The translations under genes and the position numbers were made by a program. The notes under the pieces are model-generated. The model had not been told where the DNA came from. It was given only the letters and a program-made list of their open reading frames with translations, and searched no databases. From Psammoneis japonica (taxonomy: Eukaryota), in assembly GCA_008632985.1 (NCBI GenBank), contig QPGO01000052.1:62001-126000 (forward strand): DNA of 64,000 nucleotides, given 5' to 3'. This document shows, one piece after another, positions 1-62,089 of the stretch (positions are counted from its first letter, which is position 1; each line of letters begins with the position of its first letter).

Positions 1-330
1 GTCATTTCGATCTTGTTGTCTCTAACAATGTTGTCAACTGACTTTCTCGCAACTGCTTGATGTTGCGGATCTTTTGATGTGTGCCATCTTTTTCAATTTT
101 TTGTGCACGCGGCGCGCTGTCACCCGTTTTTTTAATGTCCTGGTCTCCATTGTGGTGCCATGCGATGGTCTGATTGGCAAGGAGGCTCAAGCCGCCCTGC
201 GTCAGCTAGTGGGAAAGATTTCTAACAAGTGGCAGAAAAGCCCTGTTTGGAAGTGTGTGGCTTCTTGTCAACACAAGTGAGATTCAGCATGAGGACTCAA
301 CAAACACAGCACAGATGCAGGCCACACTCT
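1..330 (+). mobile_element. Decayed C-terminal fragment of a non-LTR retrotransposon ORF (restriction-like endonuclease type)
   Basis: IVVPCDGLIGKEAQAALRQLVGKISNKWQK / KPCLEVCGFL resembles the S.DG..G.EA...LK.LA..LS.KW..PYS.V.G.V tail of REL-type LINEs. The fragment is frameshifted. Confidence 0.5.
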
Positions 331-1459
331 TGTGATGCACAAGCATCCAGGACACCAGCCAAATGTGCTGCAGTCAAGCAGCCTCAAATGGTCATGTGTG
401 GCACATCATGCCAGTGCCACAGCAGCAAAGTCAAGTGAGCAATGACACACCACAGAATTGAGCTTGTCCTGTGTTGCACCCAAGAATGATGGAACATTTT
501 TGTGGTGCATGACTTTTTTTGAAGTGCGGCTTGTTTGAAAAATGACTGGTGGCAAATCCAGGGAAAAGCTCTAAAAGTCACACCCACATGCATTTCAGCA
601 AAAGTCAACCTGGGCTCTAAACCTCCTCATTGTGTGTCCAAAGTTTTTCTGCCACAGAGGAGGGGCCAACAAATGGTTTTGCTCAAATGTTGCCATGATT
701 TTTTGGGTGCAGCACAGGATGTGCTGCAAAGAACAAGAGAGGGGACAACCCCCCATCAAAAGCATGAGTTCAGGCATGCAGCAGATGGGCTGGTCTCTGC
801 TGAAAAACCCAACAGGGAGGTTGTTGGCAGTGATGAGAGCTTCTCAAAAGCAGCAACAACAACAACCAGCCCGGTGGCAGCATTGCATGTCATCGTGGTC
901 AACAAACCCTTTTGTTGGATTCCAGTTGACTCCATCTCACAATGAGCATCACACCAAGTCTTCTTCATCTGAGGCAGCAGCAGAGACTTTTTTGTGAGTT
1001 GAATGCCCACCTGTCTTCACGCCAGGAGTTTTTGACACTTGGATGAGTTCAAGTGTCAATTTCCCCCATCAGAAGCCCAGACACAGGCCTCCACACAATC
1101 CAGTGCAAAGTCCATCCATGTTCTTAGTGTGTGCCACACCACATGCATGGCAACATGCTCTCTCATGAGCAGATTGCTGCTTTGTGCTGGAGCTTTAGTG
1201 CACCTTGACACACAGACTTGCAGATCCTTGGTTGAGCAGCTGTGCCTCTGTTCTCTTTGAGATCTTCATGAACATGGAACATTTTGATGACAGCAGGAGC
1301 ATGCATCACATGTCAAATCAACAAAAAAAGACCAGATCCATGTTTTGAGTGCTGTCGCTCCTTTGCCACCAGCTGGGCTGGCGCCAGCTGACCCACACTT
1401 CCAGCACACCATTGATTGTGGCAGAAGCTCATGGGGATCAGCCAGAATGGACATCACCT

Positions 1460-4400
1460 CACAGTGACGCCCCACTGAAATAACCAGCAACAGAGCAAGT
1501 GTCACAAAGCATGGAGTTCTTCATTTTCTTGAGGCTTTCTCTCATGCATGGTTTTGCCACAGCAGTGCAGTTCATTGTCCATGAGGTGGAGTGGGACATG
1601 TGATCTTCCACCAAGTCCAGCAGCACATCTCTGTGAGGTGCTCCTGTTTTTTGTTGCACATTGCCGTGAGTTTGGCTTCCACTTGTTTGCACTGAGATGA
1701 TTTCCTGGTGTCTGCATCACATGACCATGCACCTCTTTGTCATGCTCTTCCCACAACTCCCGCCAGGATTTCCAAGTGCAGGCTCCGATCTGCACTGCCC
1801 AAATGGGAGGTGAGTGATTCTCCTTGTGACACTTTTCCAGCAGTCCTGTGCTGCAAAGATGCATTTCTTGAAAAGTGTTCCAAAGAGTGGAAAAATGATG
1901 GTTGAAAACTCGATGCCAACCCATGTCAGACTGGGCTCTCCACAAAGGACGCAACATTGGGGCAATGTTGTCATTGCATGTCATCTCTCACCTTGAGACC
2001 ATGCTTCAATGGAGGACAAAAGAAGATCACACAACGGGGACATTGTGCTGATGTTGTCACAGAGCTTTTGGAGGCCTTGTGGGAATTTGCAATGCCAGGT
2101 TTCATTGTCAGGGCAGCACAAAATGCAACCCTGATCTTCCCTGGGATGTTTGCAAAAAGGAGATGATGTGGTCTCACTGGATTGCAATGGTGAGTGATCT
2201 TGTTTGCAGGAACAAGAAGCTCATGGATCAATTTGACAGCAGACACATGTTGCTTTGAGAACTGGTGCACCAATGCAGTGTGCATGGACCAGTCTGTTTT
2301 GTCTGTGATTGATTCATCCCATTTGTTCCTTTCCTGAATGTGCACCCAAGCAGAGCAGGAGCGCTGCGCCAGTGTGTCAAACCACAGATTTGAGCCCTGT
2401 GGCAATGGCCCTGTCTTGAACACTCAGGTGGGATTGGCAATGGGGGAGGGGGATCACCTTGGTTGTGTCAGATTTGCACTGGCCTTGATGTCGTCATGTC
2501 AGTGTGTTGGCATGCATGTTGATCTGAGCACCAAGAGGGAGAACTCGACTGGAGAGTGTCTGTCCTGATGTCCTTTCACCCACTCAAGAGCAGGAGCCTG
2601 GGCTGGAGAAAAAGGATTGAGGATTTTTCAATGGCTTGGAAGGTCTGACAAATCTTGTTGATGATGTCCCAATCAGATGACAAGATGTTGGCACCATGCT
2701 TGCACAGTTTAAAATCTGTCTCGGGATGGAGACTTGAGCTGAAGGATCAACGGAAGGACTGCTGTCAGACAATCAGGAGAGAACTTGAACAAGAGCCCTG
2801 TTGTCACACCAGTTGTCAACACCTTTGTAAGATGACATTTTGCAAAATTCAAGCAGACAAAAAACAGAGCGTGTCAGGGACATGAACCCACAGGCCTCTG
2901 CTTGGCACAAAGAAGGCATTCTGTCAAACACCAGTCTGGCACAATCCACCAATGTTCTCCCATCAAATGCAATGGTCCACCCAAATGTCGCTTTCTGTAG
3001 ATGCACAGACCCACCGCTGCCTGCCACAAGGCAATTTGATGCAAAGCAATCCACCAGTTTGAGCGGGGAAACATGGAATTCCATGTCAGAGGACAGGGCA
3101 GACTCCCAGGAAGGCAATGCTTGCAGACAGTCTTTAAAGAACTTGGGGAGAGGAGGAGGTGTTTCCACTGTCAATTTTGACCAATGAGGAAGACATTGCC
3201 ACTGTCCATTGCAGGTGGAGATGATCTCCACTGGGCAAGATGAGTCAGAAGGATCAGGAACCATTTCAATTTGATGCAGGGATGTTGCCACTGTGTCCTG
3301 GGCCAGAAACACATCAAAACTGGATGGAGACCATGCATGCAAATGTGATTCCTTTGGAGACCAACAGGCAGAGGCCTGCATGTGCATCTTGGAAGGAGGC
3401 ACTGACCAATCTCCCAGAGGGGCTTGTAATCTGGTGGAGTCTGGATGACACAACAATTCACACAGGCATGTCCAGGGACCCCATGCTGGATGACAAGGTT
3501 TTGTTCATTCAATGTTGTCAACAGTGCTGACACTGCTCAGGCAAGTTGGATCACTGCAGACCTTAGACTTGTCCAGAAAGCATCCATCTGCCATGGCAAT
3601 GTCCAACACAGTGAGAACCCTGAGACACAGACAGCAATGGTTGATCCGCTGAATCTCTCGGGACAAGAATTCTGAAGACTCCAGAGCAACATGTCCACCA
3701 AGAACTGGTCGTCATCTCATTGCAGAGGTGGGCACCCCATCTTTGTGTCAAATCAACAAAGACATGGACACCCACAAAACAGCCTTCTTGTGCCTCCATT
3801 GGGCATTTGCTGCTGGCAGGAAACCAAGATTGAGCAAGCTCCTCAGCACAAGTCAACTCACACTGGAGCTTTTGGCTGGCCACATTTTCAGCCATCACCA
3901 GCTGCTTCTGTCAATGTCACAATGGTTCTTTGGTGCTGCTCACAAGCAATCTGGCACAGTTGTGAGCAGGCACTCATCTCTCAACTGGTGTTTCTATCAA
4001 GGAAGGCTGGGGGCAAGCCCTTGCTGGCCAAATGCCTTGCTTGAGATCCTGTTCTCAACAGCTGCTGCAGCTGAAAATGGGCTGTTTTTGAGGAAGGTTT
4101 TTTCAGGTGAGCAAAAGGTTCAAGAAGCATTGCTTGCTCATGATTTTGCAAGACAGCAGAGCCAAAAGATGGTTGGCTCAAGGTGCAAATTTGGTGGTGC
4201 TGCAGAAATTGTGGCTTCCATTTTTTTGCAAGGGCTGGACAAGGTTGAGAGTGTGCCTTGAGACACCATTTTCTGGTGTGTGCACATTTGAATTTTTGCA
4301 GGGCGTGCTCTCACAACAAGTTTCGAGCTGTGTTTGGAGACATTGGGCTTGAGCACAAAATGACCAAAAGCAACACAGGTGCTGCTGGGCTGTGTTGTTC
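1460..4400 (-). mobile_element. Decayed LINE-like retrotransposon with RNase H domain
   Basis: RNase H-like motifs GSGGSV..ATFGWTIA, PSLCQAEACGFMS, WCDNRALV (2773-3456) and EWVKGHQD (~2565-2587). It has many stops and frameshifts and is homologous to 27750-29790. Boundaries are approximate. Confidence 0.7.
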
Positions 4401-4933
4401 AACATGAGTGACCTGGAAAATTCTTGGTTGGTTGGCCAGGAGGAGTGGGCTGTTGGTGTTTCTTAACCAAGAAATGATCATGACCAAGGCAAATGGATTT
4501 CTGCATCAAAAAAAGGAGGAAAATAGAGAGGCACCACTTTGAAGATTTGTTGGAAGTCACATGAGATCACACCTCTTGCACTCACTGGTGTGCATGGGGG
4601 CATGCCAAGTGTGCTGTCTCACAACTGTTGCCACAATTCTCTCTTGGTTTCTTGGCCGCACCTTCTGCATGTTTTTCTGTTCAAGCTCTGGCACAAATGT
4701 TGCCTTTCTCTGACAGTGTGACAATGGTTCTCACCTGCCCATTTTGACTGCTTCTCTCATTGACATGCCTTCATTTCATCATCACAAGCAATCTCATGCA
4801 TTGGAAAGTGACTGACATTGAGCTCTTTTGGCTTGTTTGCTTGTCATTCTTCTCCACTCTTCTTGGTGTTTTCTTCCTTGTGTGCCAAGTTATTTTGCAA
4901 ATTCTGCGTGCTTCAAAAGTCATTTCAGATGGT

Positions 4934-5331
4934 CAACTTGGCAAACTTTTGGCTGCGTTCCATCCACACCTCTCAGGTGTCAATGACCCCCCTTCTGCCT
5001 GTTGTCAATTTAAGTTCCCTGCTTCACATGGCAGACAAAAATCTTCCATCATTGCTGCACTCAGAAATTTGAATTTGAAAGAACCAGTTCAGCATGCACT
5101 GACCTTTCTTCCATGTGCCAACAACTTCGCACAAGTTTTGGTGCATGTTCTGTGTGTCTTAAAATTAATTTCAAACAATTGACTTGCCAAACTGTTGACT
5201 GCTCTTTGTCCACACCTCTCAGGTGTCAATGACTCCCCCTCTGCATGCTGTCAGTTTAAGTTTTCTGCCGCCCCCCATGTGGCAAATGAGAATCCTCAAT
5301 CATTGCTGCTCCAAAAAGTCTGAATTTGAGG
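4934..5331. repeat. Imperfect direct repeat, about 150 bp of shared core, period about 247 bp
   Basis: tccacacctctcaggtgtcaatgac..ccc..ctgc...tttaagtt occurs at ~4963 and ~5209. Confidence 0.7.
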
Positions 5332-7989
5332 CTGGCTCAGCATGTGTTGGTGGTTGCTTCATGCCCCACTCTTTCTCATTTTGAAACATTTCCTGACTGT
5401 CTGTTTCACCTTGGCAGCCAAATCTGATCCCAAGAAGAGAGCCTTGATTGCAGCATCAAGTTTTGACATTTCATTCATTTTGCTGGTCCTCTTTTTGCTG
5501 CTGCCAGCTGTTTCCAGTGGGTGCCACAGATTTGCAGTGTCAATCTTGGCCAGCTGCCATGCATCTCTGCCACATTGTGTTGGTGTGCAAGGGGTTTGGG
5601 TTGGCTTGTTGTGTTGCCAGAGTTGCAGGGTGGAAGCACAGCAGCACTGCAAGAGCAGATGGCTTTGGTGTTGAGTTCAATTTTTGCACCATGAGAAAAA
5701 GAACTTCACAACACACACCTTTGCCCACACCCACACACACCATTTCACAGCAACTGCAATGATGAGACTGTCATGATGCACCACTGATGGTCAAAGACTT
5801 CTGCAGAACTTTGACCCACAAAACCCAAGCCTTCCACTAAAGTTGCTGCAAGCAAATGCACATGTTGGTCATTGAGAACAAGTTGGTGCTGAACTTTCAA
5901 AATGTTTCAACAAAGAGGGTGCCACAGCTGCAGCTGCATGTGCTTGTGACAGCTCATTGGAAGTTGATCATGGGCAAAGCATGTTGCTCATTCTGTGGCT
6001 TGCTGCTGTCTCCAAAGTCAACAACCAAGAGATGATTGCCTCAGGAGGCAGCACCCACCCTGACACACAAAATCTGGCAAAAACAGTTGGAAGTTGGAAG
6101 CTGCCCATGCCAGCATGATGGGCAAGGAGCTTCCAGCCTGCTTTCTTCTAACTTCTTGGTGTTGAAGCAAAGACATGAAAGTGCTTGCCCCTCTCAAAAG
6201 ATGCACAAGCCAATGTGATCTCTGGTCATGATGTGCGACTCCTCAATGGCAAAGAACTCTCCCACTCCAGAGCCCAAAAGGACTCAGTGGTTGTTTTGCT
6301 TTGTTGATTTTTCAGGAGATGCTTGAGTCTGCCTTGCTGTGAGCATCAAGATTTGTGAAAGTGGTGACAGTGTTGAATGTTTGCAACATGGATGATGGGC
6401 TTGTTGAGCTGCCAGTGCACTGGACATGAAAAGATCAAGAGCCTTGTGTCTTGCAAAATTTTTAGACTTTTTGGCAGAAACACTGCTGCACAGTCAAATG
6501 ATTGTTTTGTGCTGCTGCCTGCTTGTTGAGCCATGGAAGAAACTTGCTTTAGCTGCTCAGTTGGTTCTTTTGCTCACATGCTCTGGCATGTTTCAACAGA
6601 GCAAAGCACTTGAAAAGTGCAAACGTGGCAGAAGCTGAGCTGCACATCAAATGAGCAACTGCAATGTGAGCACCTTGACACTCCAGCTGCAGAGTGCAAA
6701 ATGTCAGCCACCCAGTTGTGGAGCATGTGAAAAATGTGTCAGATGGCTGTCAACTGTGGTGGACATGATGCTGGGCAGAACAAGAGCTGAATGATCCCTC
6801 ATCTTTTGCACTCTGTTTTTTGTTGAGCACCACATTTGCTGCACACAAGACAGCAAGGCTCTGAGTTTGCAATCTGCTCAAGAAGCAACACCATGAATCC
6901 AATGTGTGATGCACAGCTGCCAAAATGACAGAATTGCTGAGTGTCAAAATTGAAGGACCTTGTTGGCCACTCCTGCACTTCATCAGGGGGGTGACTTTAA
7001 AAACTGGGGCCACTTTTTTAATGCACTGTGCTGCTGGTTTGCCAGGAAAGGAAACCATGCAACAACAAAAATCACATCATTGCCATGACACATGGGAAAC
7101 AAGAAGCAAGAAGATTGAAAGTTGTTGCTGGGTTGCTGTGTTGGCTGGCTGAAAGACATTGGCAGCACCATTGCACTGAACATGGTGCTGAGAAAAACAG
7201 GCACTGAGGGGGGACAATCAATCTGACCTCTTGATGGGACAAAACCAGAAGTGGCCCCACATCTCCAGGCACAACACTCATTCCAGGCACAAACCTCTTC
7301 AAGTGAGACACAGTGGCAACCACCCATTCTGCCAGCTTTCCAAGATGATGTCTGCCCAACTCCCACAGAGGAAGAGACAGAATGGAACAAATGTGAGCAG
7401 GACATTTGACAAAAGAAAAAGATGTCATGGAGCCAGCAAACCAGGGAGAAAGGCAACATTAGAAGCAACAAGCAAGAGCAGGGTTGATGGCAAGACCATG
7501 AAAGCAGCTGTGTCTGTTCTGGGTGGTGCCATGACTGCAACAATGAATCTGCCACCACTCTCCACTCAAGCTGTGCTCTGGAAGTGACTGTGCACATGAT
7601 GGAGCACCAGCACACAACCACGTGCTGCTGCTCAGTGAGCAGACACTTGCCTGAGACAAAGGTTGGGTTTGTGACTAAAACAGAGTGAGTGCATTGTCGT
7701 CTGTTCAGTGTTGGAGCATCTGGAACAAGCAGGAAATGCAAGAGACCCAGAAGCAGATCCATTGAAGAGAAGATGCTTTGGATCCTGATGTGGTGGATCA
7801 GATGACACTTTGGAAATGAATGTGCACTTGTTGCCAATCTCACCAACTTTCTTTTGTCTCACCAACTGGAGTGAATCATCCAGTTTGCACAAATGTTGTG
7901 TGTTGTGGTGTCAGCAGGCAGCACCTCTTGCATGATCACAAGATTGAAGTTCATTGAAAGCTTCCAGGCAAACCACAGCCATCACAGCA

Positions 7990-10400
7990 ACCAAGACATG
8001 GACCCTTGTTGGTTCAACATTCACTCCAAAGAGTCAAGAGCACTGTGTTCAGTGCATGTGGTGCCAACCTCCATTTTGTCATCTGAGTCAGGAAAACTGC
8101 ACTGTGAGTGGCAGAGGAGGAGGTGGAGGAAAGGAGGAGGAGGAGGCCAAGGACACAGCCAAGGCAGGGATGGCAGAGGAAAGAAGTCTTGCTGCAACAA
8201 AAACAAAAAGACTGGTGACCCCAACAAGAGTTTCAAACTGGAAATGAAGTTTCATCCATCATTGATGAACAGCAACTCATGCAATTTGATGGTCAAAGAC
8301 ATCAAGGAAAAGATCATCAACCATGAGCAGAAGGAATGTGATCAAGATGTGCATCTGGCAAGGTCCCTGGAAGACATGGCATGCATGACGTTCACTGGTG
8401 ACAGTCCAACGCTGGTGATGGCAATGCCAGCAGTGCCAGCAGAGACAGGCAAAGATTGCCTGACCAAGGCAAACAAGAGGGCCAGAGAAGAAAGGCAACT
8501 GGAATGTGAGCACAAGATCAAGTTGCAAGACTGTTGTGAGAAAGCAAAGAAGCTCAAAGACAACAGAAGCACTGCACTTGTGGTGATCCCAAAGGATCAC
8601 TGTTCCAAGCTGATGGAGCAGAGAGTGCAAGCTGACCCCAGTCATCAGAGGATCAGAGATGACCCAATGAAGCTGCTGAAGCTGATCCAGTTACTTGTGT
8701 TCAACTCCATGAGAGGTTGAGACCCCTCTTCCACACACTTGCCAACAAGTTCCTGAAGCACACACTGGAAGTGAAACAGCTGGAGGATGAGTCACTGAAT
8801 GTCTTCCTGTCAAGATTTAAGAATCAACGGGGTGCCACAACAAGTGATGGTCTTGACAGCAAAATGTTGGACAGATTTTTTTGTCAAGAATGCCAAGGAG
8901 TGCAAGGACTGCACTGCCACAGCAGATGAGCAAATGCTGAAGGATGCTGCTTTCAAGACATTGACAACACACCTGTTTGTGGATTGTTGCCACAAGAGCC
9001 TCAAAAAGAGCCTTGTGAGAGACTGCAGCCCAGGCAAGGATTCACATCCAAATGCCCTCAAGAAGGCAATGGATGTGTTGCTGAACTGTCCAAAGGATGC
9101 ATGATGATCTGCACAAGGGGTGAAGCAAGAAGAACAACAATGAATGCCCAAAAAACAAGAAAGAAGACAAGGGCGCAATTGCATGCTGCCCAACAGCCTG
9201 CAAGACCAGAGTGATGCACACAGAGTGGCAAAACAGCACGCCATTGTTGTGGTGAGCCAAACTACAAGTCTCCAGACTGCAGGTGCAAGGATGAGATTCC
9301 ACAGAAGGGCTGGTGTAAGAACACCTGTGAGAGATTGGGTGCCAGGGACAGAGTCGCGCACAGAGAGACAATGACAATTCATCAGTGAGCAGTGATGAGG
9401 ACACCAGCGTTGACACCCGCAGGTCAAGTTGATCTGCAAGCTCCAACAGAAGAAACATCACATTGCATGGGTTCCAGTTGGATGAACAGGCACTGAAGAA
9501 GGGCCAGACATGAGTTTGAGCCAAGCTGATGTCAGCATTGAGTCAGATGAGATCATCCTTGACAACAGCTTTGCTCTCTTGGTGTGGCAGCAAGTCAGAA
9601 ACTGGTGCACAATGTGCAACCAGCAAGGATCAAGATTGTCCTTTCTGCCAACACAGGAGTGGATGCTTTGGACAAACTCCACCCTGTGCCAGGATGGGGT
9701 GAGGTGAAGCTCAGATCACAGAATGCAGCAGCTGACATCCTGAGTCTCAAGGATGTGAAGAGCAAGTGCTGCATTGCACATGACAAGAGAGTGGCAGACA
9801 AGCTCCATCTGCTGGATGAGAAGACTGGCAAACAGGTCACAGTGTTCAAAGTTAATGACACCCAGCTGCACACCTTTGCACCAAGCCAGCAATTCTTTGA
9901 CAACACAAAAGAGCTTCAAGAAGGTGAGTCAAATGTGAGCATGCTGTCAAAGGACAAGAAGGTTGCAAAGAAGACAAGCAAAAAGCACAAGAGTGTGTCA
10001 GGAGCTCTTGTTCTGACTGTGAAACAGAGTGTGAAAGGCCACACTAAACAAGAGGCAGCAAATGCTTCTGAGGAAGCATTGAGACTGTGCCATGAGGCTG
10101 GAATGCCCAGTGTGAAAAAATTCAAGCTGTTTTTATGTTCAAACCAGAGGTGAAGAACCTGCCCATTCTCCCTGAAGATGTGGACAGAAAGGCAGCCATG
10201 TGGGGTCCACTGACAGACACACTGAAAGGCAAGACCAAGCATGCACACCATTCCCATGAGAGGAGTGACATCATTGCCATTCCACCTGAGATCTACAAGA
10301 AGCAGAGAGAAGGTGTGACCCTCTGCATTGACTTTGTCGAAGTGTGCAGTGCCAACACACTGCACGCAATTGACAAGAAAATTGACTTGCTTGTCAGTTC
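7990..10400 (+). mobile_element. Decayed Ty1/copia (CoDi-like) LTR retrotransposon: gag, protease, pre-integrase and start of integrase
   Basis: Gag-like LEMKFHP..VKDIKEKIINH..ARSLEDM, protease-like IILDNS (~9552), then ALRLCHEAGMPSVKKFK..NLPILPEDVDR..WGP..LKGKT and integrase start VTLCIDF. The domain order is copia-type and the ORF is frameshifted. Confidence 0.7.
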
Positions 10401-49397: not shown

Positions 49398-49689
49398 CTG
49401 CACTCACGACTTGACCTTCTAAAGCGAAATAGCTTGAAGGAGCTGGATACAATTGATTGAAACCTACCATACTTTATCAAGAATTTGGGAACTTGGGTAG
49501 GAATGCTCTGTTTTGGGGATATACAACAATGACGACGAGACTCATATTTGCAATCTCGTGTGAAACAAACAAGAGCCATGTATAGTAGTACACAAGGGAT
49601 CATCATCTATTTCTTTGAACCAGTAGCAACATAACATAATGCAAATCTATGGAACTGAAACTCCAACCCCGCTTTGCTTTTCCTGTTCA

Positions 49690-50633: not shown

Positions 50634-51220
50634 TCAAACCTGGACCAGTTGCCATTGCAACTTTTCAGAATCCTTTGCAGCGGGGCACACTTGTGACAGG
50701 CAGGAATGCTCCAACTCATACTGCGGAAACAGGGTGTTGTACACATCATGAGCTTTGCGGAGCTCGGCGTGCAATTTCGCCACGCCTTGTTTCTTTGCAG
50801 CCTTCACATCCTTTGGAGGCTCGCTCAGCGTCACCTCTTTGACGAGTTTGGGCTTGGGTGGTAACGAGGGAACCCGAATAATCCCCCTCCAACTCGTCAT
50901 CGTCATCATCGTCCTCATCGTCTTCATGGAACGGGTGCATGGGTTGCGGTACTTTTCCAGCGGTTCTCCTTGTCATCATCTCGAGCATCGTAATCCATAG
51001 ACTCATGCTCATCACTATTATCAGTAGAGCTTGCAGCACTTGTCGGCGAACTCTTGGCATTTGCCGCGGCAAGCATCGCGCCAACGCCGTTGCGGCGATC
51101 CGCGGAATCCGCACCGTTCTCAATTATATCCCAGTCGTATTGAGACGGACTCTTTTTAAAGTCGTCGTCATTATGAAGCGCCAAAGGGCTGCATTGGTTT
51201 GAGTTGGTATTATGCGCCAT
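50634..51220 (-). pseudogene. Disrupted hypothetical acidic protein (coding-like segments in three frames)
   Basis: MAHNTNS..DDDKEN, HEDDEDDDDDDELEGDYSGS and EVTLSEPPKDVKAAKK lie in successive different frames. Confidence 0.3.
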
Positions 51221-51419
51221 GTCGATACAAAGTACAGTACGGCAAATGACCGCCATCGAGGCTGAATTTGAATTCGTCTTGGAACAAAAAAATGAAAAAA
51301 ATCCCTCTGATGGCGTGATGCGCGCAAGTCGCTGGAGAAATAATGCGCAACGAGAGAAGACCGTGGCGGAGCATTTTTTCTAGAGTAGGGCCCTACGAGG
51401 TACACGACGTTGCTCAATC

Positions 51420-54400
51420 ATGACAGATGCCGCCATCCATGACTTTTGCAAACAGCAGCGAGAATGGCTAGAAGTTGAGTTGCACAGTGAATCAGATTCT
51501 GAAGATAAGAAGTCTCATGTCCTCCATCAATTGAGCTCGGCCGACGTCTCTGTTGGATTGTATGGACGTACCGTGGTGGAGTTTTCCAAGGACGACGATG
51601 CTCTTTTACCTGCTCATAAGTTCACCACGGGAGATGAAGTAGAGATTCGAAGTGGAAACAGCAGCAGCAACAACAGTTCTGGAGTGGTTAGCGCAGTGTC
51701 AGACAGGTCCATCTCTGTCGCGCTGTTTCAAGCAAAAAAGAACAAAACACAGAAAGCCGATGACGACGATAGTGAAGAAACGGCAATAGGAAATCCTCCC
51801 TATTCGTTACTTCCTCGAAGCAACATTGAAGTGCATCGTAAAATTGTCAGTGCTCTGGATGAACTCGATAGCAAGGGCGCGGGCCATCCAGTTGCATCCA
51901 AGATTGTGAAGGCACTTTTTGACGTTCCCGCAAACCCAGAATCTGTTCCGTTACAGGACTTTCACCCAATCAATCAGAATCTAGACTCGAGTCAGAGAGA
52001 AGCTATTTCCAATTCTCTATCAACGAGTCAACCCATTTCGTTGATTCACGGACCGGTACGTTCAGATTTCAAGGCAAATCGAGTTTGACACGGACGATTC
52101 GATACTAACTCATTTCTTTACAGCCAGGAACGGGAAAGACGACTACCGTCGTTGAACTTATTCAACAAGCGGTCAAGCTACATGGATGGAAGGTACTGGT
52201 GACAGCTCCTAGCAACGTTGCGGTGGATAACGTGTTGAGCAAGCTGGTTGGTGAGAAGACAAGTCGCAATAAGAAAAGACAGCGGCTCAAGGTGGTGCGC
52301 CTTGGACATCCCGCGCGATTGCAAACTTCCATCTTGCCCTACAGCCTGGAGGCACTTGTACAAGGTGCGGATGGAACCGAGATTGTTAATGACGTTCGTT
52401 CCGAACTACAGTCCTATTTGAAAATACTAAATGGCCGGGGCGGGGACAAGCGCCTGGCATACCGTGAAGTCAAGGTACTTCGGAAAGAACTGCGGACGCG
52501 GGAAGAACGGGTAGTGCAGGAGCTCATGGACAATGCACACGTTGTCCTCGCCACGTGTGTTGGAGCGGCAAATCAAAAGTTGCTACGGGATCAACAATTC
52601 GATATGGTTGTGATCGACGAGGCCGCGCAGGCGTTGGAAGCTGCTTGTTGGATCCCTGCACTACAGGCAGGAACAAAACTGGTCCTGGCAGGAGATCATT
52701 GTCAGCTACCACCGACTATCCAAAGCAACGATCCTATTGTACAGAAAGGACTAGCTGTTACCATGTTTGAACGCGTCATGCAATTGTATGGAGACACCAG
52801 TGGTGGAGGCCGTGTTTCGCGGATGCTCAAGGTTCAGTATCGCATGCACGAAAGGATTGCGAATTGGGCAAGTCAGGCGCTTTATCATGGACAACTAGCG
52901 ACACACGAAACTGTCAGGGACCGGACTCTTGTACAGTTGAATGGAACAACCCCCGTTGGCGTCGGTTTGGATGATACTTGTGGACTGGAGGAAACACCGC
53001 TATTGCTGATTGACACTGCGGGGTGTGATATGCACGAGTCCGAGAATGCTGCTGGGTCCCGCTTCAACGAAGGAGAGGCTCAGCTGGTCATTCAGCACGT
53101 CCAAAAGCTGATTGAAATGGGTGTTCAGCAAGATCAGATTGCCGTGATTACTCCCTACAATGTTCAAGTCGAGATTCTTCGTTTGGCTCTTCTGCCCGAC
53201 GCACCAAAGCTTCAGATTCGTTCGGTAGACGGATTCCAGGGAGGCGAGCGGGAGGCGGTTGTTCTGAGTCTTGTCCGTAGCAGCAATCGGGGAGGGATCA
53301 AGGGTATTGGGTTTCTCAAGGACGATCGACGTCTGAATGTCGCTGTCACCCGAGCCAAGCGACACTGTTGTGTGGTCGCCGACACCGACACTGTATCCCA
53401 GAGTCCGTTTTTGAAGAACTTGATCGACTGGATCGAAGAGCACTGAGAACAGCGCTCGGCATTCGAACTCATGTCTGATTCAGTGGAGGGCCAATATGCG
53501 TGTGATCTCGCACAAGCCGAGTTGGACTTGGAAAGAATCATGGAGGATGCAACAAAGGCGGATACGACGACGAAGCCGGTCAAGCCTCGAAGCGAAGCTG
53601 CATACAAAGCACCGAGTGCCGAGGACCAAAAGGTTGCCTTGCGAACAACGATTCAAGAGTTTGTCTCTAGCCATGAACCAGGCGCCGAGATGATCTTGAG
53701 TACTGAGCTGTCCAAGCTTGATAGAAAGCTCGTACACGAGATCGCGGAGGAACTGCATCTGGAACACGTCAGTGAAGGCACCGAAGGCAAGAACCGTCGC
53801 ATCAAGGTGACGATTCCTAAACCAGAAGCTGCCGCAACCGTGGAAGAAGCAGAGGCATCTGAAGTTACTCCCGAGAATGAGCTAGAAGAGTCAGTCACGC
53901 CGCCGGGTGATGCGAGTCATGCTTCCAATGATGATGCTTTCGGGGAGGAGCCGGCAATGGCCATGTCAGCGTTTACAGCGTTAGAATTGGGCGAGGATGT
54001 CGATTCAGAAGACGATAAAGAAGAGAAAGTTCATGCGGAAGTGAAGACAAATAATCCATCAAAGTCAGGAATGAACAGTCTCTTGGGCGACTTGGCGAAA
54101 GAAAGAGCTGCTCGTGCCTCGGCCGCTGTTCAAAGCAAGGAGTCTCAATGTAAAGGGCAACCGAAACCAAAGAAGAAGAAAAAAGCAAAAAACAAGAATG
54201 CCCAAAAGCTTGGTGGCGGAGCGTCGACAAAAGATACTGATCACGAGTTGGATGAACTAGACGATATGGCATTTTTGGACGCGCAAATCAACAAGGTTCA
54301 AACGTCCCACGGAAGAACGATTGATGGGAAGGGAAGCACGTATCGAACCATTATCAATGGCGCGCTTCTCACCACACCCATCAGCAAAGGTCCAGTCAAG

Positions 54401-54487
54401 AATAAGAAAGACGCTCGTGCTTCAGAAGCGTTACAAACGAAATTAAAGGAGGCGCAAAACAACCGAAGGACGAAAAAGAAAAAGTGA
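51420..54487 (+). CDS. IGHMBP2: IGHMBP2/SMUBP-2-like SF1 (UPF1-like) helicase with C-terminal R3H domain; in-frame TGA at 53444-53446
   Basis: LIHGP|PGTGKT (intron 52056-52123 with TACTAAC branch site), APSNVAVDN, IDEAAQALE, AGDHCQLPPT, QYRMH, SVDGFQGGE, RRLNVAVTRA, and R3H motif DRKLVHEIAEELHLEHVSEG. Confidence 0.9.
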
Positions 54488-56619
54488 AGCTCCAAAAACA
54501 TGTTTTCTCATTATTCACAATATCTATTTTATGATAAAATTGAAAATAGGCGATAAACTCACAGCTAGTCCAAGAAAGTAGCCCAGGTCACTTTCTGCAA
54601 TTTCCATTTCAGCGTCACTGTTTTTCATCTTCAGCTTTCCCACACATTCAACATGCGGCAACAATACCTTTTCCAGTGTTTCTTAACCATGTCGGCGGGA
54701 GACTCTCCATCCGCAAAGAACCCTGGATTCGCCCGTCGTAATCTGACGGTCTCCAATGACATCTATATGAAGGCCAGAAATGCAAACGTGAAACTCATCT
54801 TAAAAAAATGTAGTAACCTCTAATCCATGTTCTGCCTGAAGCTCATAGCAGCAGTAGATTAGTCGCACGCTTTTAAAGAAGGAACAAGGGCTAAGAGACG
54901 AGAGACGAAACATTGTACATATCAATACGCCAATCAATCCAAACAAACAAGAAGACAGTTCGAAGACACCTACGTTCCAAATGTCTTTGGTGGGTAGGAC
55001 GTAGAGATCGAGGCCTGGAGTGTTCTTCCGTAAACCGCAACCAACAGTGTACCAAAAGTTGGCCATTCTCCAGGGCAATAAGACTCTCACCATGTACGTG
55101 AACAAACCAGTAAGCACTTGAATAGACCAATTGTAACCAAAGCTTTCGAGGTTCACAATCCGTACAAGGCTCACACATTACCACCCCACGAGCAACAAGA
55201 AAGAGAATGCAACATTGGTAATCACCAAAAAAGCGCAACTTAAAAGAAATGGCCATCGATCAATAGGAGAATATAGTCCCGTCCAATTTCTCTACGCGTT
55301 CGCGATGGATATAGCTCGAATGCGAGCAGATCGCGATTGCGTCAGCTCCGGATCCGCTGACGACGGCGACTCGACAAATATATCTACTTCACTCTGCATT
55401 CTTCTCAGTTGACTCTTACTCTAGAGAGTCTCGATTTCTTTTTCTCTTCAGATAAATATTCCGTTTTTCTATCTTCAATCTGTGTTCACTTGGACCTTCA
55501 TCATCATCTGATTCTGTGCTCTTCAACATCAAATTTGCTGTGGCTGTGGGGGTATGCGGTGGGGCGGTGGGGGACGATGGCGATTTTCAAATTTGGATTT
55601 CCAGATGGATTTGGAAATTTGAAGATTTTTCCGTCTGTCAGTCGCTCGGCAAGTCTTTTGCATTTTCGACGGTTACCGTAATGTGTACGTAGGAATTAGT
55701 AATAATTTGGAAAGTACCGAGTTCCCACGAATCTTTTACATACGAAATCATGGTAGTAAATCTACAAAGATACACACAAAATGATAGTGATTGAGAAATT
55801 TAGCAACGGTCACGAAACAAACAAATCTCTGTCTCGGAAATTCTTTCGTTTCGATCACAACTCGTCGTCTCGCACCATGTGCTTGTTGTTTGCCAAGCTG
55901 GAATGCCGCTATCGCCAAGGATGGCTCGCCCTTCCTCTGGATTGAGACCTTGCATTCGTTTGGCATTCCACAACTCATTTAGCTTGATGTCGTGTTGTCT
56001 CTAGGTGGCGCAGGTGTTGCCAGTTAAGTCCGGAGGTCGGGGCAAATCGAATGCGTCTCTCCGGCCTTGAGTCCATGTCACTCTCGTGTCTTTGAGCGCA
56101 GGAAGTTGCCTGTTCGCTTGACCCGTCAGGTCACGGCTGTTGAAACAGGCAGCAGCGTTCGTCTGTGAAGCAGCAAAAGCTCGCCGAGCAGATCACACTG
56201 TTGACGGAACACAGGTTTGGGGTTCTGTCGCATCATTGACATGATGCGGTAAGTCTTCACTCACAGGGAGTGTTGATTTAGAACGCGGTTGACTCGCAAG
56301 TTTTCTTGTTGTCTCCGTAGCACGTCCCCCCTTTTGCTTTTTTTTGAGTGATGTTTTTCTCTCTGAAGGTGCGTAAAAGCTTGAGCGCCATCTTTTGATG
56401 GAGCTCTTGAGGCAACGTCACCCTACGCAACCGATTTCTATGTCAACTTTTGACATTGGTGTGTCTCAATTTCATTGAAACACTCTTTGAACCTTTACAA
56501 TAGAAGTAGAAAAACTAAAAGCACCAGACAGTGTTCCTCATTTGCGTGTGAGTTATTCTGCACGCATGTCAACAGACTGCGATGACGGTCGCAGCGCTTG
56601 CGATGTCGTTGCACATTGT

Positions 56620-57300
56620 GTTGTCGTTGTTTCACAGGATTGAAAGGTGCAAGTCGAGAACATCTGTTTCAAAGCCATTCCCGCCCATGCAAGTTCACAC
56701 TTGTTGTCCGGATTAAACTCACGACTGGCCGTTTCGCCATCTTCATTGTCTTCGGCTTGTTCCTCCAGCTCTTCGAGCCCTTCTCCAGTCCAATTCACGG
56801 ATCATCATGAGTGAGTCGAGCGCAACGCTTGATCGCTTTGGGCCCGCCCTCGCAGATGACACATGCCAGGCAGTGACGGGCTTTTGCATTCCAAGACACC
56901 ACCCGTGATGTAGTTTTGCTGCGCTTTCAAACCAACCTTGGTCCGATGGTGTGTGTTGACATCGCAAAAACTCGTGCAGAAACAAGTCCATTCTATTCCC
57001 TTGTGATTCCATGAGAAGTGATGAAACAATGAAGAAACAAATGAGCCGCAAGCTCCAGCATCTCTCTGGGTTCTTGGCTGTTTTGCTCTTTTTGTGAGCT
57101 GGCTCATCCATTTCTCTGCATTTCACCCTCTGGTGTGCGGCTGGCTGCATTTGATGAAGGTTCTCCTTGATCCTTGGCTCGCTCACCTTGGAGATGACTG
57201 AGCAACCCAAGGCACTTCATCTCCTGTTCACAACCCAGCTCACCCCCTGCTCCTTTTTCATGTGCCACAAAAGCAGGGAAAGGGGCATTGAGCAGCTGCA
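56620..57300 (-). pseudogene. PRP3: U4/U6 snRNP Prp3 C-terminal fragment, pseudogene
   Basis: HRTKVGLKAQQNYITGGVLEC, CVICEGGPKAIKRCARL and NWTG..NPDNKCELAWAGMALKQMFSTCTFQSCET match Prp3 C-terminal motifs. The fragment is frameshifted. Confidence 0.75.
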
Positions 57301-58899
57301 AACTTTGCTGTTCTTGTTGACAGCTGTGAGAGCTGCTCACCTCGGCTGGCACATGTGTTGTCATGAAAAGACTCATCCTGTGAAATGTGCTCTCTCTTCA
57401 CACACATGCGCAAATGTTGTCTTCTATGAGCAGAAGCTTTTGCTCACCAGACATGACCTCAGGAGCCAGATGAGTCTGCAATGCTCATGACACGAGTCAC
57501 CCACAGTTGAGACACACAGTCATGTCAAGACACACACTCAGTGGAGCGAGCCTGAGTTTGTGCAGCTTTTGCAGAGTGAGCACTTTTGGGTTGCATGTCT
57601 CCCCTGCTGCAGGGCTCCCATGACACAAGCACCATTGCTGGCATCAGCCAGCTGTCAACAATGGCACAAAGAACCCACCCAGAGATTGTTTTGCAAAAAG
57701 ACTCTCTGTTGCTGACCAAGGCAATTTTGCTGCTTTGAACAGCCCACAATCAACAGCTTTGATGGCTGCAAACTGTGGGCAATGGAGACAAGAGCCTGTC
57801 CAGGCCTGAAAATTGCATGCCAAGGAAGATTTGGCAATCTCTGCAAATGCTCTGTTGCAAGTGCTCTGAGTCATGTTGCTGGCAAGATCAACACCAGCAT
57901 CTTGGGTGGGCGCTCAATGGAAGAGGCTTTCAATGTCTTTCTTGCCAATCAGAGGTGCACATGACATTGACTTCATTGACTTTCTCATGTGGTCCAAAAT
58001 GGTGCAAGTGGGGGGCTGTTGCAATGCTGCTGGGTGTGTTGTCACTTGTCATGGTGGCAAATGCGGAGTTGAGCACTGCCATTTTTTGTGGCAAGATGCT
58101 CTGCAATTGTTGAAAGAAGAAAGAGCTGTTGCAGACAGAAAGGTGACAGCGCCAATCTCTCCAGTGCAAACAAAAGGACCAAATGCCACCCTGGCTCCCA
58201 GTGGAGCTGGATTCCTCCCACCCATGGTGGTGCTCACATCTTCACGGGCTGTTTCCAGAAATGGGGTTCACAATCACAGCAAAAAATCAGATGGAGATGA
58301 ACACTGGGAGATGCTTGATTGTGGTGATGCCTTGCCACAGGTCACCAACTTCATGCACACCAAATTGTGCACAAGTGAGATGGCAGGGTTGCCAAACTGG
58401 AAAATGTGGCATGGCTTTTTTTGGCTGGCCAGTGTGAGAAGCTCCAAAGATGGGGGTCCATCCAGCACACAATGATCTGAAACCAGATCAATCTGTCAAG
58501 GCATTGCAGCTGGAAAGAAGACAGCTGGGACATGAAGAAAGCATGCTGCCATCACTGTCAAGAGCTGCAGCAGTGTGAGCATCTGTGCATGTGGTGTGTG
58601 TGCATTGTTGACAGGCCATCAATGCAATCATCATGTTGCACAAGAGTGGCATGTGGTGCATGCATTCATGATCATGTGTGCAAATGGAGTTGGAGAAACT
58701 TTGGCACAGTTGGCCACATGTGATCCAAAGAGCAATTCAACAGGGAATTTGCACAACTCCCCATTCACACAAATTTTTTCAGAAACAAGCTGGTCTCATG
58801 AACTCCACAACATGGCGCAACTTGTGACAACCTGTTGTTTTCATCACCTGACAGTGCACAAGGCACAGCAACATTGCTGCTGCAAATGTGCAAGGTCAC

Positions 58900-59990
58900 A
58901 ATGATGTCTCATTGAAACCAGCACCAGCAAGTCAGCCAACCATGAAAAAGCAGGTTGAGCTGCCATCTCTGCTTGAACATCCAGAGAAAAAGGCACTGTC
59001 AAAAGGAGAGCACAAGATGTGTGAGCTCAGGAAATTGCCAGTTGATGAAGCCAGTCCAACACACAAGCTGAGTGTTCTGTGCTTTTTTGTGGGTTGTGTG
59101 TTTGAAGAGCAAACCCATCATTGTGTTTCTGCACAATGCAGGCCACATTGTGGCAGGGCAAAATGTTCCACCAGACTGGAGAAGTTTTTGCTTGTGCACC
59201 AGTTGCTCATGAGCAATGTCTTGACTGCATTTGATGATGGTGCATCAAAAGGGCATCAGATGGAGGCCAGTGTGTTGTTCAAGGTGTGTGCCTCAAAGGT
59301 GACACAAAAAGCATCTTCCCACACAAGGCAGCAGTGCTGCAAAAGCATGTTGTCTCTGTGATGTTTTGTGCCAAAGCCAAATGGCATGAAGACAGGCAAC
59401 TCTGTGCCACAAAGGCCAGTGGATGAGGTCAATGGCCACATCTTGCTGTTTTTGCCTGTGATTGACAATGGTTTTGCACCTGCATCATTGCCAGAAGACG
59501 AGCGGCCAGTTGACTCATTTGAGTGAAACACTTCAAACACACGGCAAAGGCAGATGATCCCACAGGGTTTTGTCCCATGGACACATGCTGTTGCCAAACT
59601 TGTCTCTGCCAAAGGCAAGGAAAGTCATGCCAAGGTCCGCAGGAAGCACCAGGGCCATGGAATGGAGACATTCCTCAATTGCTGGGGTTGCCAGTCAGGA
59701 GAGAAAGGCATCAAATGCTGGGCATTGCATGGTGGTGACAATGCCAGGTGCACAATGTGGAAGAATGTCTCAGTTTGAGGCATGGGGTGTGAAATGTCTC
59801 AAGATGTTTCACATGAATGGCAATGGAAAGCCAGCCACACAGAAACTGCACACTCATGAGGAGCTTGACAAAGATGCAAAAGCAAGAGTTGAGTGTGTGT
59901 TTGAGAGCTGCAGGGTGGTGCGCAAGGCTTGCAAAGAGGATCCAAATCACTTCTTTGCCCTGTCCCTGGGTGACTCCAATGAGGATTTGG
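58900..59990 (+). mobile_element. Decayed retrotransposon gag-like ORF
   Basis: LSKGEHKMCELRKLP...SPTHKLSV.CF, KPNGMKT..DEVNGHI..F and knuckle-like CWALHG. These resemble gag-like proteins of diatom LTR elements. Confidence 0.5.
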
Positions 59991-60459
59991 AGGACAACAC
60001 CACCTGAGAAGCAGGCCAGTGCAAGTCAGATGGGTTCAGTGCATCACTTGTTGGCCAACCCCACACACACATCAAGCACAGACACCTGACTGATGCCAAT
60101 CTTGTTTGCAGCCATGGATGCCAAGCATGGTGAAGGCAAGCCTGAAACAATTGAGGCAGCACCAGATGGTGGCATCAGGAGCACATGCTGCCTGATGCCA
60201 AGTGCGGCAAATGTCTTTTGAGTCACACAACAGCCCCCAAAAACACAGTGGCAGGCAGCTTGCAGCAACACGCACGCATTTTTTTGTGTGGCGCATTGCA
60301 GAGCATCCAACACAAAGATGACCAATGTGGCATGTTGCCGTTTGGAGTCATTGTGATTGACAGCACCTCGATGCCATGGGGAGTGATTGCTGACATGGCG
60401 AGGTGCATTGTGATGGCTTGACTTGGTGTGTTGTTGTGTTGCCATCTTGTTTTCACTTT

Positions 60460-61219
60460 GTGACTCACCGGCTGTTGCATGCAGAATGGTGTTGTCATTT
60501 GCATCATCTGCAGGATGGAATCTGGTGGATTGTCAAACAATGGGCAAGTGTGCATCACAATGCTGTTGTTCTGTTATGCTGGATTGTCCTTTTTTGCACT
60601 TCACATTCCCTCAGCCAACCCTTGCTTTTTGTGCTGCTGTTTTCCACTTTTTAGTGCAAAATCACGGTTGTTTGTGGCATGGGCATGATGGACATGGACA
60701 ATGGCAAGCATGTCATCATGCTCACCTTCAGCTCCCTTGACACTGCCATGGAGAATGCTGATTTGGAGTCCTGCGTGGCTCCCCCAGCCACTGCTTGACC
60801 TCCAGTGCCATCAGAAATTGCAGCTGCTGTTTCACCCATCATTTCTTGCACTGACCAACAAAAGAAAATGAGGTGAGCTTCCACTGATCTTAGTTGCATC
60901 CATTTGCAGAAGACCAGCCCTTTGCTGTTTGTCCACTGAATGCCTTTTTGTCTCTTGTTCATTTGCACAAGCTCACACGCAATGCACAAAGAACATGTCC
61001 TGCACCCTGATCCTCTGAGAGGCATCTTGACAAGGAAGTCATGGGGAAGGAGATGTCTGTCCACAGGCACTGCAGACAAGGCTCCCTCAGCCAATGAGAA
61101 AAGAAAAGCTGAACAGAAGACTGCCAATGCAATTTAAGATTGTTGCCATCAACACATCTAAAACACATGTTGGGTGCAACAAAGTGCAGCAACTGCCAGT
61201 TTAAAATTGGCAATGTGCA
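60460..61219. repeat. Dispersed ~750 bp repeat, copy 2
   Basis: Colinear with 38175-38922. Confidence 0.9.
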
Positions 61220-62089
61220 CGTGCATTGTCTGTCACACAACATGCGCCACTCTGTGCTGTGGCTTGGTTGAGTGTGTGCCTTGCAGTGGTGCTCTTTCAG
61301 CAAACATGGTCTCACACATGGAAAGACCCGTCAACCAAAGAAAGGGAGGAAGAGGCCTGTGCAAGAAGAAGACCTTGTGCACAACAAGAAGGCAATGAAG
61401 ACATTTGACCACATGCATCAGTGTGCAGTGCCGAGGTGTAAAAAATGTGTGTTGGCATGTGACGCATGGAATCTGTTGAACAAAGAAAAGACAATGTAAA
61501 CTCACTTTGAAAAATGACAAAAGCTTGCCTGCATCTGTTGCTTTTGCCCCCCATCCACACTTGAAATCCAACAGCATCACGCGCAACAACAGTTTCCAAA
61601 TGATTTTTTAACCCCTGACGTCATCAGACAAATGTACGTTTACTTGATATTTGCAACGACTCAACACGCGAACAAGAGTTCGAAGTCACAGCACTGAACA
61701 TCAAACATTGACATCAAGTCTCATAGCGTTCTTTGTTGTTATCGTTGTTGACTTGCCTGCAATCGGTGAATGTTGCTCTTTCGCCTTCCCTTCTTGTTTT
61801 CCTTGCGTCTTGTATCCTTATTCATTATCTCACGTCTCGTGCCTTGCTTGTAGCAACGTTGGGAGAAGCTCTTTGTCAAGCAACAAAATCAAAGGACTTC
61901 GTTTGAAACGTCGGCTTTCCAAATCCAAATCGCCGCGAAAAACCGTTGGCCTGCTTGAAAAAGGTAACAATTGCTTTGTATCACTGTTGTGTTCATTCGC
62001 ACTTCTCCCTATCAAGTCTCCCTCTCACATGCAAGCTTCGTTATCTTATCCAACTCTTGTGCAGCTGCTGGAAGCGGTTCGAATTGAAT

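Follow-up and report, generated by a model that had tools for sequence, protein, structure and literature searches.

How can more than half of a stretch of DNA lose nearly every TpA dinucleotide when the genes lying between the affected parts keep theirs? The question is raised by 64,000 nucleotides from the diatom Psammoneis japonica (NCBI GenBank assembly GCA_008632985.1, contig QPGO01000052.1, positions 62,001 to 126,000 of the forward strand), hereafter the window, in which three repeat-rich blocks alternate with gene islands. A first-pass annotation, made from the letters alone, had described the blocks as nearly free of TpA, poor in CpG and rich in TG and CA, with normal islands between them. 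Counts and scans of observed/expected (o/e) dinucleotide ratios confirmed that description, with a TpA o/e of 0.05 across more than half of the window. The core of the earlier reading, a regional process acting at the DNA level on TpA in silent repeat DNA and standing apart from CpG decay, was supported by every test that was run, and we consider this process very probably real.

The o/e ratios were scanned in 1-kb segments across the stretch and in 100-bp segments at the block edges. In the three blocks, TpA o/e was 0.00–0.12, CpG o/e was 0.00–0.28 (mostly <0.2) and TpG and CpA o/e was 1.6–2.1; the corresponding island values were ∼0.6 for TpA, ∼1.0 for CpG and ∼1.15 for TpG/CpA. For counting, the block cores were taken as positions 1–11000, 23000–40900 and 57000–61500, a sum of 33,402 bp. 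These cores hold 124 TpA and 184 CpG, where island density would give 1,335 and 1,872, respectively. Expressed per 1000 dinucleotides and strand-symmetrised, TA stood at 3.7 in blocks and 40.0 in islands, CG at 5.5 and 56.1, and TG and CA at 116.0 each in blocks and 70.9 each in islands. TA and CG together were therefore down by 86.9 and TG and CA together up by 90.2, with a base composition that was the same in blocks and islands to three decimals. With this near match of loss and gain at unchanged base composition, the blocks look like island-type DNA in which nearly all YpR steps (a pyrimidine followed by a purine) have been driven to TG or CA by transitions.

Pooled over the blocks, TA o/e was 0.05 and CpA/TpG o/e 1.86. 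AA/TT was without depletion (1.20 in blocks vs 1.15 in islands), GA/TC stood at 0.96 vs 1.16 and AT at 0.81 vs 0.92, the last drop being attributed, by arithmetic on the dinucleotide counts, to conversions of ATA and TAT. The 1-kb segments of the islands that lie over gaps between long open reading frames (ORFs) had a TA o/e of 0.58–0.89; since these spacers keep their TA, the pattern is not a genome-wide bias masked by selection. On both strands, TGA accounted for 598 of the 664 stop triplets in block 1, 929 of 1,057 in block 2 and 292 of 332 in block 3. With TAA and TAG gone and TGA the main stop left, long spurious ORFs devoid of Tyr are common in the blocks, and gene finders could be misled by them.

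The direction of change can be read from decayed genes. A dead copy of the Ran GTPase gene lies at 40910–41488 on the reverse strand, recognised by Pfam Ras (6.9e-15), by solved Ran structures (1e-27) and by codon reading. Against the solved structures, the residues at its six aligned Tyr positions are, in order, C, C, H, H, F and H, and at the codon level each of the five C or H outcomes is a single TA>TG or TA>CA step, so that the Tyr to Cys or His replacement claimed earlier for Ran holds at five of six positions, the sixth being F. TA loss is compatible with three more differences, namely L>P (CTA>CCA), I>M (ATA>ATG) and K>E (AAG>GAG following a T), and CG loss with seven. The frame of the remnant, 193 amino acids (aa) long, contains zero Tyr. 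A word-index search with the remnant gave no match.

Two remnants with RNase H-like sequence, resembling long interspersed nuclear elements (LINEs), were compared with 13 homologues. Copy 1 (2776–3504, reverse strand) was found by homologue search, and copy 2 (28821–29369, reverse strand, in a decayed RNase H-like stretch that spans 28456–29369) shares 39% identity with it over 111 aa (E 2e-17). Conserved columns were those with at least 60% agreement among at least seven homologues, and both remnants were pooled. Conserved Tyr was kept at only one of seven positions and was replaced by Cys three times, by His twice and by Trp once (C, W, H, C and C in copy 1; Y and H in copy 2). Likewise, conserved Arg was kept at one of 11 positions, with replacements that include Cys (twice), His and Gln (twice). 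Retention of the other residues was 14/24 for Leu, 12/19 for Gly, 9/13 for Pro, 8/13 for Ser, 7/11 for Trp, 5/8 for Phe and 5/5 for Cys. The residues lost are those whose codons need TA (Tyr) or usually bear CG (Arg). The homologue motif SYRAExYG reads CQAEACG in one remnant and YQAKVHG in the other, in agreement with the Tyr loss previously noted for the LINE RNase H. Over the Ran copy and both LINE-like remnants, 10 of the 13 conserved Tyr positions now carry Cys or His, and these protein-level comparisons support TA>TG/CA as the likely direction.

Two other decayed host genes had been suggested. A C-terminal Prp3 remnant is indeed present in the block 3 area, at 56556–56801 on the reverse strand (Pfam Prp3_C, E 1.9e-6; score 28.4 bits, cut-off 27.6). 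For RanGAP, the ORF that was tried (39821–40306) was without a RanGAP match in Pfam or PDB.

The limits of the TpA loss are sharp. Block 1 (1–11300), in which TpA and CpG are nearly erased and TpG/CpA doubled, continues past the left end of the window. Gene island 1 (11334–22209; TpA o/e 0.49–0.77, CpG 0.75–1.13) and gene island 2 (41500–55859), which carries a WW-domain protein and an IGHMBP2-like helicase, serve as internal controls. TpA and CpG are both erased in the cores of block 2 (22700–41000) and block 3 (57000–61634, including a repeat copy at 60507–61222). The loss of TpA ends at ∼11,300, 22,210, 41,500 and 61,600, and on the left side of block 3, partial loss sets in at 55,860 and becomes complete at ∼57,000. 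These edges are resolved to 100–500 bp, and the adjoining islands and spacers are normal.

The TpA-poor zone is wider than the CpG-poor zone by 0.2–1.1 kb. At 22210–22700, three TA were counted against 19.6 expected (P 4e-6), with 26 CG against 27.5. At 41000–41500, where the Ran remnant lies, a single TA was found against 20.0 expected, with 30 CG against 28.1. In the zone of partial loss at 55860–57000, which holds the Prp3 remnant, the counts were 18 TA against 45.6 expected (P 3e-6) and 66 CG against 64.0. Three edge zones with TA lost and CG normal make the loss of TpA separable from CpG decay: it spreads farther than CpG loss, or proceeds faster. The first-pass annotation had implied a wider CpG-poor zone than the one observed; its separation of the TpA process from CpG decay is borne out by the edge zones and by flank preferences that run in opposite senses. 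Both recognisable dead host genes, Ran and Prp3, are located at block edges beside islands, in DNA that has lost TpA and kept CpG. It may be that the TpA process takes hold of gene copies at the borders ahead of CpG decay.

Beyond these two genes, the blocks contain deeply decayed material. Pfam scans covered 280 stop-to-stop ORFs of at least 70 aa in three sets. The 75 ORFs of at least 120 aa gave one match (Ran), the 150 ORFs of 70–119 aa gave only HCR at chance level (E 0.0077, below the cut-off), and 55 further ORFs gave Prp3_C and a sub-threshold Rhodanese_C. Credible matches were thus limited to two of the 280, and no viral gene was recognised among them by Pfam. The targets seen are LINE-like remnants and repeats, and also the dead host genes Ran and Prp3.

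For copy 1 of the LINE-like remnants, 114 homologues were obtained at E<=1e-3 and 16 at E<=1e-10, most of them within proteins of 1,200–2,000 aa. This family (P0241–P0354) comprises large environmental-assembly proteins with an RNase H-like block of the form SDGS...FGW...YRAE...CDN...KGHQD. The 13 of 114 homologues that were aligned are P0241–P0247, P0250–P0254 and P0256; the short fragments P0248, P0249 and P0255 and the weaker matches were excluded. None of five homologues had a Pfam match at E<=1e-5, and at E<=0.05 sub-threshold matches appeared to RVT_1 in one of six and to Exo_endo_phos (APE endonuclease) in three of six. The family is probably a poorly modelled clade of retroelements without long terminal repeats, and the remnants at 2776–3504 and 28821–29369 may be called LINE-like, though not firmly so.

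Self-alignment of the window revealed other repeat families common to several blocks, together with tandem arrays. A young tandem repeat at 22636–23187 (forward strand) consists of three 184-bp units of 98.9% identity that are free of TpA; copies so alike and already TpA-free must have been duplicated after TpA was gone, and they are uninformative on whether duplication acts as a trigger. An older array in block 2 (35620–36686) has a unit of ∼190 bp and 70–75% identity.

The repeats show where and how the changes arose. A dispersed pair, 38220–38926 (forward strand) and 60507–61222, is 80.8% identical, with 117 mismatches over 700 aligned bases, 88 of them transitions. As many as 44 of these mismatches fall into 22 adjacent double differences, with CA in one copy and TG in the other, where by our estimate ∼3 would be expected by chance. 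The same pair has seven sites with TA opposite CA/TG and six with CG opposite CA/TG. Four other repeat pairs gave 17, 5, 12 and 2 CA/TG double differences; one pair overlapping itself was excluded from these counts. Double differences of this kind mean that each copy chose TG or CA after duplication, and hence that the copies were mutated in situ.

Both strands were affected alike. Of 7,746 pairs of neighbouring TG/CA sites, a fraction of 0.495 agreed in state (0.500 expected), and the variance of TG/CA skew per 500 bp was 1.26 times binomial, without one-strand runs. The lack of such runs counts against two alternatives, retro-copied RNA editing and processive deamination of single strands on a scale large enough to leave a trace. 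The earlier reading of A:T>G:C change at the DNA level on both strands, taken from Cys and His outcomes within one gene, is therefore upheld, with TG and CA outcomes that are independent site by site.

Survival of TpA in the blocks depended strongly on the flanking bases. Relative to islands, TTAA survived at 0.70, CTAA/TTAG at 0.41 and CTAG at 0.16, followed by GTAA/TTAC (0.10), ATAA/TTAT (0.07), CTAC/GTAG (0.05) and ATAG/CTAT (0.03), with ATAC/GTAT, ATAT and GTAC at 0. By arithmetic, none of ∼390 expected RTAY sites (R, purine; Y, pyrimidine) is left in the block cores, and the order of survival is TAA > TAG > TAC ∼ TAT. An additive per-strand model in which the dose is set by the base after the A (A 0.18, G 0.92, C ∼2.1, T ∼2.5) fits all ten NTAN classes within about 20%, also by arithmetic. 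From this dependence we infer an enzyme-like specificity. Among CpG sites, TCGA (0.045) and ACGA (0.051) survived least and GCGC (0.23) most. The two preferences are thus opposed, TCGA being the most depleted of the CG classes and TTAA the least depleted of the TA classes. Deamination of 5-methylcytosine (5mC) is faster in AT-rich flanks, and the CpG pattern fits its spontaneous course.

The reality of the blocks was examined with a public read set from one sample and one study, by comparing de novo contigs of run X1 with the window. Word depth in exact 31-mers was 55–61x over blocks and islands alike, and contigs matched the area of block 1 at 4001–7698 and 10302–13035, at a depth of 56–61x and with 3–8 differences apiece. 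Inside block 1 the window and X1 differed at 3 of 616, 3 of 934, 8 of 810 and 8 of 1,264 bases; in an island they differed at 7 of 9,421. Both tested edges were spanned by single contigs, at 11.3 kb (10302–13035) and at 22.2 kb (13037–22468). Exact 31-mers at this depth point to accurate polymerase-read data, for which miscalling of modified bases should be unable to explain the pattern, and such miscalling is an unlikely source of the blocks. The read set reproduces the blocks and two edges, in a sample that is possibly the assembly's own.

The same run speaks to the nature and age of the blocks. Of 621 matched X1 contigs, 335 were <90% alike, amounting to hundreds of diverged block look-alikes, which identifies the blocks as repeats in the genome; the look-alikes differ from the window by 583 transitions and 242 transversions. 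In contigs of single-copy depth, ∼26 differences were found in 4.6 kb of block and 10 in 11.1 kb of island, a density ∼6x higher in the block. Among the 30 best-supported block differences, five exchange TA with TG/CA and eight exchange CG with TG/CA, compared with none of 10 in islands, the data giving no orientation of change. These differences are a hint of a recent or continuing process, to which collapsed paralogues or alleles could contribute. Run X2 is RNA-like, its contigs skipping stretches of 67–103 bases bounded by GT..AG or CT..AC. Its depth was confined to island genes, with none at 4001–11337 and next to none at 22677–24000, a gap in contigs that is not evidence of silence.

A counterpart has been described in the rhizarian alga Bigelowiella natans, where viral DNA integrated in the genome undergoes A:T>G:C hypermutation restricted to TpA (Mettrop et al., bioRxiv 10.64898/2026.01.13.699255; all statements on B. 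natans follow the accessible part of that preprint). Two integrated viral regions received 231 of the 302 nuclear single-nucleotide mutations recorded in 15 mutation-accumulation lines. A>G or T>C accounted for 230 of these 231, every one of them on TpA, and the rate was ∼6e-7 per site per generation. The two viral insertions are silent, and only part of the lines was affected (11 of 15). The 95-Mb genome holds 124 clusters depleted in TpA and enriched in CpA + TpG, in which DDE (transposase-type) endonuclease, endonuclease-reverse transcriptase (RT) and RT domains are enriched. As the mechanism, its authors put forward an ADAT2-like protein that deaminates adenine in DNA. The accessible text makes no mention of diatoms, CpG or wider sequence context. 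Since the same signature had been measured there, the claim of the first-pass annotation that the process was undescribed does not stand. In our full-text literature searches, no paper describing TpA hypermutation in diatoms came to light. To our knowledge, before 2026 no cellular process was known to target A:T pairs at TpA in DNA.

The two cases share changes at TpA only, to TpG or CpA according to strand, in regions with sharp limits within a normal nuclear genome; the targets of both may likewise be silent or foreign DNA, and the long-term trace is one of clusters poor in TpA and rich in CpA + TpG with endonuclease-RT and RT domains. They differ in lineage, a rhizarian there and a diatom stramenopile here, and in saturation, which is mild there, with a Rho TpA of 0.45 in the insert of a nucleocytoplasmic large DNA virus in B. 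natans as compared with a TpA o/e of 0.05 in the window. The targets are viral in B. natans, whereas here they are LINE-like and other repeats and dead host genes, no viral gene being recognised. Erasure of CpG accompanies the process here and is unmentioned in the accessible text on B. natans, and the preference for TAY/RTAY over TTAA is described here only. Finally, de novo mutation was measured in B. natans, whereas the process in P. japonica is known from its footprint in the sequence. Taken together, the comparison supports a second, far more saturated instance of TpA hypermutation of the B. natans type in another major lineage, and the diatom and B. natans cases point to a wider genome defence.

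Other systems resemble the blocks in part. Fungal repeat-induced point mutation (RIP), a process that senses duplication before meiosis, also leaves irreversible, regional and saturating transitions in repeated or silent DNA, with coding capacity ruined and sharp borders beside normal genes. RIP, however, changes C to T at CpA and creates TpA, whereas here TpA is destroyed and CpA/TpG made (TpA 0.05, CpA/TpG 1.86), and the first-pass annotation was right to contrast the two. Decay of methylated CpG would explain the part of the pattern in which CpG turns into TpG/CpA: CpG is lost and TpG/CpA gained within a delimited domain (CG 5.5 vs 56.1 per 1000), and TCGA is the most and GCGC the least depleted class. 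Such decay cannot touch TpA, and the loss of CpG covers a narrower zone than the loss of TpA. In the natural substrate of TadA and of ADAT2-ADAT3, the edited A34 is preceded by U; the bacterial TadA reads U-A-C, and the eukaryotic ADAT2/3 accepts several bases after A34. The U-A-C substrate resembles the T-A-Y preference seen here, although a purine preference at -2 or a T-directed chemistry would fit equally. AID/APOBEC3 enzymes likewise exert defence through enzymatic DNA deamination with a short sequence context, but they convert C to U on one strand per event and leave clustered G>A runs, whereas A:T pairs are changed here without strand runs.

The probable explanation overall combines two context-specific transition processes. 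The blocks would be silent, repeat-rich DNA containing decayed LINE-like elements, further repeats both dispersed and tandem, and dead copies of host genes such as Ran and Prp3, in which both processes would act in place and on both strands until their targets were nearly exhausted. The first process would convert A:T to G:C at 5′-TpA-3′, turning TA into TG or CA, most strongly at R-T-A-Y (T-A-Y per strand), more weakly at TAG and hardly at all at TTAA. It would strip all Tyr codons and all TAA and TAG stops, and extend from a few hundred bases to ∼1 kb past the CpG-poor core. The second would be the ordinary decay of methylated CpG to TpG/CpA. Chemically, the first process may proceed from adenine to hypoxanthine, read as G, through a TadA/ADAT2-type deaminase directed to silent chromatin; we assign the enzyme to this class tentatively and, by analogy, give it slightly less than an even chance. 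A chromatin-directed, TAY-specific adenine deaminase (best at RTAY) may also be an old defence common to distant lineages of the stramenopile-alveolate-rhizarian (SAR) supergroup, here diatoms and chlorarachniophytes, which in diatoms would operate on a genome scale beside CpG methylation, earlier or over a wider area than CpG decay; this broader proposal is possible, yet we lean against it rather than for it.

Several observations weigh against this explanation or narrow it. The direction of change rests on 13 Tyr and 11 Arg positions together with composition, the nucleotide-level spectrum being unpolarised. As TpA is palindromic, A>G chemistry is indistinguishable from T>C, and a preference for a pyrimidine at +1 from one for a purine at -2. 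The NTAN survival values use island 4-mer frequencies in place of the ancestral composition of the repeats. Run X1 may derive from the assembly's own sample; it does not depend on the assembler but may share the platform, and the library type is unrecorded. The B. natans regions still contain 3.3% and 9.2% TpA and no CpG link is reported in the accessible text, so the two cases may not share a mechanism; DNA activity of ADAT2/TadA-type enzymes (amphioxus, Trypanosoma) is known to us only as cited in the same preprint. Finally, among 80 metagenome loci (755,894 bp) around homologues of the helicase of island 2, no comparable block was found in diatom-like loci, such contigs being short and repeat-poor, which makes this a weak piece of evidence; a single segment with TA o/e <0.25 and TG/CA >1.5 occurred, in a locus of 72% G+C.

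The explanations that compete with a targeted process differ in what they make of the edges and of the flanking bases. Adenine in TAY might be deaminated or miscopied everywhere and repaired in open chromatin only, so that the blocks would represent a repair desert. The coincidence of block edges with island ends, the gradual loss at one edge (partial over 55860–57000) and the transcriptional silence of the larger hypermutable region of B. natans would suit this untargeted scheme. It is nevertheless unlikely, given that island spacers and introns keep normal TpA, that total loss of RTAY demands a very high lesion rate, and that 11 of 15 B. natans lines were mutated, ∼1000-fold above background, from which the authors infer regulation (bioRxiv 10.64898/2026.01.13.699255). 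The modified base could instead be thymine. In silent chromatin, a TET/JBP-like dioxygenase would turn the T of R-T-A into 5-hydroxymethyl- or 5-formyluracil by oxidation, and mispairing with G would give T>C, which the palindromic nature of TpA allows as readily as A>G in TAY. 5-Formyluracil does mispair with G, and 5-hydroxymethyluracil of dinoflagellates prefers TpA. The analyses that were run gave no indication of either the base or the enzyme in this lineage, and the sole studied case proposes adenine deamination (bioRxiv 10.64898/2026.01.13.699255); we regard the thymine route as improbable, more so than untargeted damage.

Error-prone patch repair would link the two losses directly, T:G mismatches from 5mC deamination recruiting mismatch repair with a Pol eta-like polymerase that errs at WA (W, A or T). 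TpA and CpG are indeed lost together in the cores, and the few hundred bases of TpA loss past the CpG loss might reflect long repair patches. However, AA o/e is 1.20 in blocks vs 1.15 in islands, leaving half of the WA motif untouched, three edge zones are depleted in TpA without CpG loss, and the B. natans mutations lie exclusively at TpA. The absence of AA depletion excludes the WA signature and speaks against the Pol eta-like candidate named by the first-pass annotation; this repair scheme is very improbable. Still less credit can be given to fossil RNA editing, in which retroelement transcripts, hyper-edited from A to I by ADAR- or TAD-like enzymes, would have been reverse-transcribed and inserted already mutated. 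LINE-like remnants are present, and a U ahead of the edited A is preferred by ADAR and fungal TAD (according to bioRxiv 10.64898/2026.01.13.699255), yet TG and CA outcomes are equal and independent (0.495 vs 0.500, no one-strand runs), Cys and His occur inside one gene, non-retroelement DNA, tandem repeats and spacers are erased equally, CA/TG double differences place the changes after insertion, and AA is undepleted. An artefact, whether a chimeric assembly or modified heterochromatin bases miscalled, is scarcely credible either. Long reads can fail in this way, reading 5mC as T and modified A as G, and the sole read set comes from one sample and study, possibly the assembly's own. Against this stand the 55–61x depth in exact 31-mers over blocks and islands, the two spanned edges, the 3–8 differences per 0.6–1.3 kb, which are beyond noisy long reads, and block genes that are truly decayed (two credible Pfam matches in 280 ORFs) rather than intact genes with TA and CG exchanged. 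GC-biased gene conversion was also considered and rejected, as it would not be confined to TpA, and so was selection against UpA, as the Tyr codons of dead genes have been destroyed rather than avoided.

Relative to B. natans, the TpA process in P. japonica brings four new elements, namely co-erasure of CpG, retroelement and host-pseudogene targets, TpA-only edge zones and the rule of RTAY versus TTAA. If it proves genome-wide, the process would be widened to a second major lineage, one of great ecological weight, and its end state would be in view, together with a rule (RTAY erased, TTAA spared) to which any candidate enzyme has to conform. Silent chromatin in diatom assemblies would likewise gain a simple compositional marker, and a naturally occurring DNA adenine editor of defined context would be indicated. 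Should the proposal of a SAR-wide deaminase be true, silenced DNA would become TpA-free, Tyr-less and nearly stop-less, through a natural TA-specific A-to-G editor of DNA. For annotation there is a practical warning, in that TpA-free DNA yields long false ORFs with TGA stops only and no Tyr.

The gene islands themselves contain recognisable genes. Island 1 bears three adjacent Choline_transpo genes, at ∼15220–16905 (forward strand), 17661–19338 (reverse strand) and 20808–22190 (reverse strand), forming a local cluster of paralogues. According to the RNA-like X2 contigs, these choline-transporter-like genes have GT..AG introns of 67–103 bases. A glycosyltransferase-like ORF is found in the same island. 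In island 2, an intron-less ORF of 1,297 aa at 42561–46454 (reverse strand) encodes WW domains, at least five in number (Pfam WW, 2.3e-53), with long spacers of acidic, low-complexity sequence between them. An IGHMBP2/SMUBP-2-like superfamily-1 helicase lies at 51384–54487 (forward strand), with an apparent short intron near 52089–52108. Its top match overall was 73% identical; the closest named relatives are those of raphid pennates (Mayamaea 68%, Amphora 67%, Nitzschia 63–64% and Seminavis 62%), with centric diatoms at 57–58%, a ranking by which the host is placed as a pennate-diatom-like stramenopile. Diatom relatives of this helicase carry an R3H domain (PF01424) in their C-terminal part.

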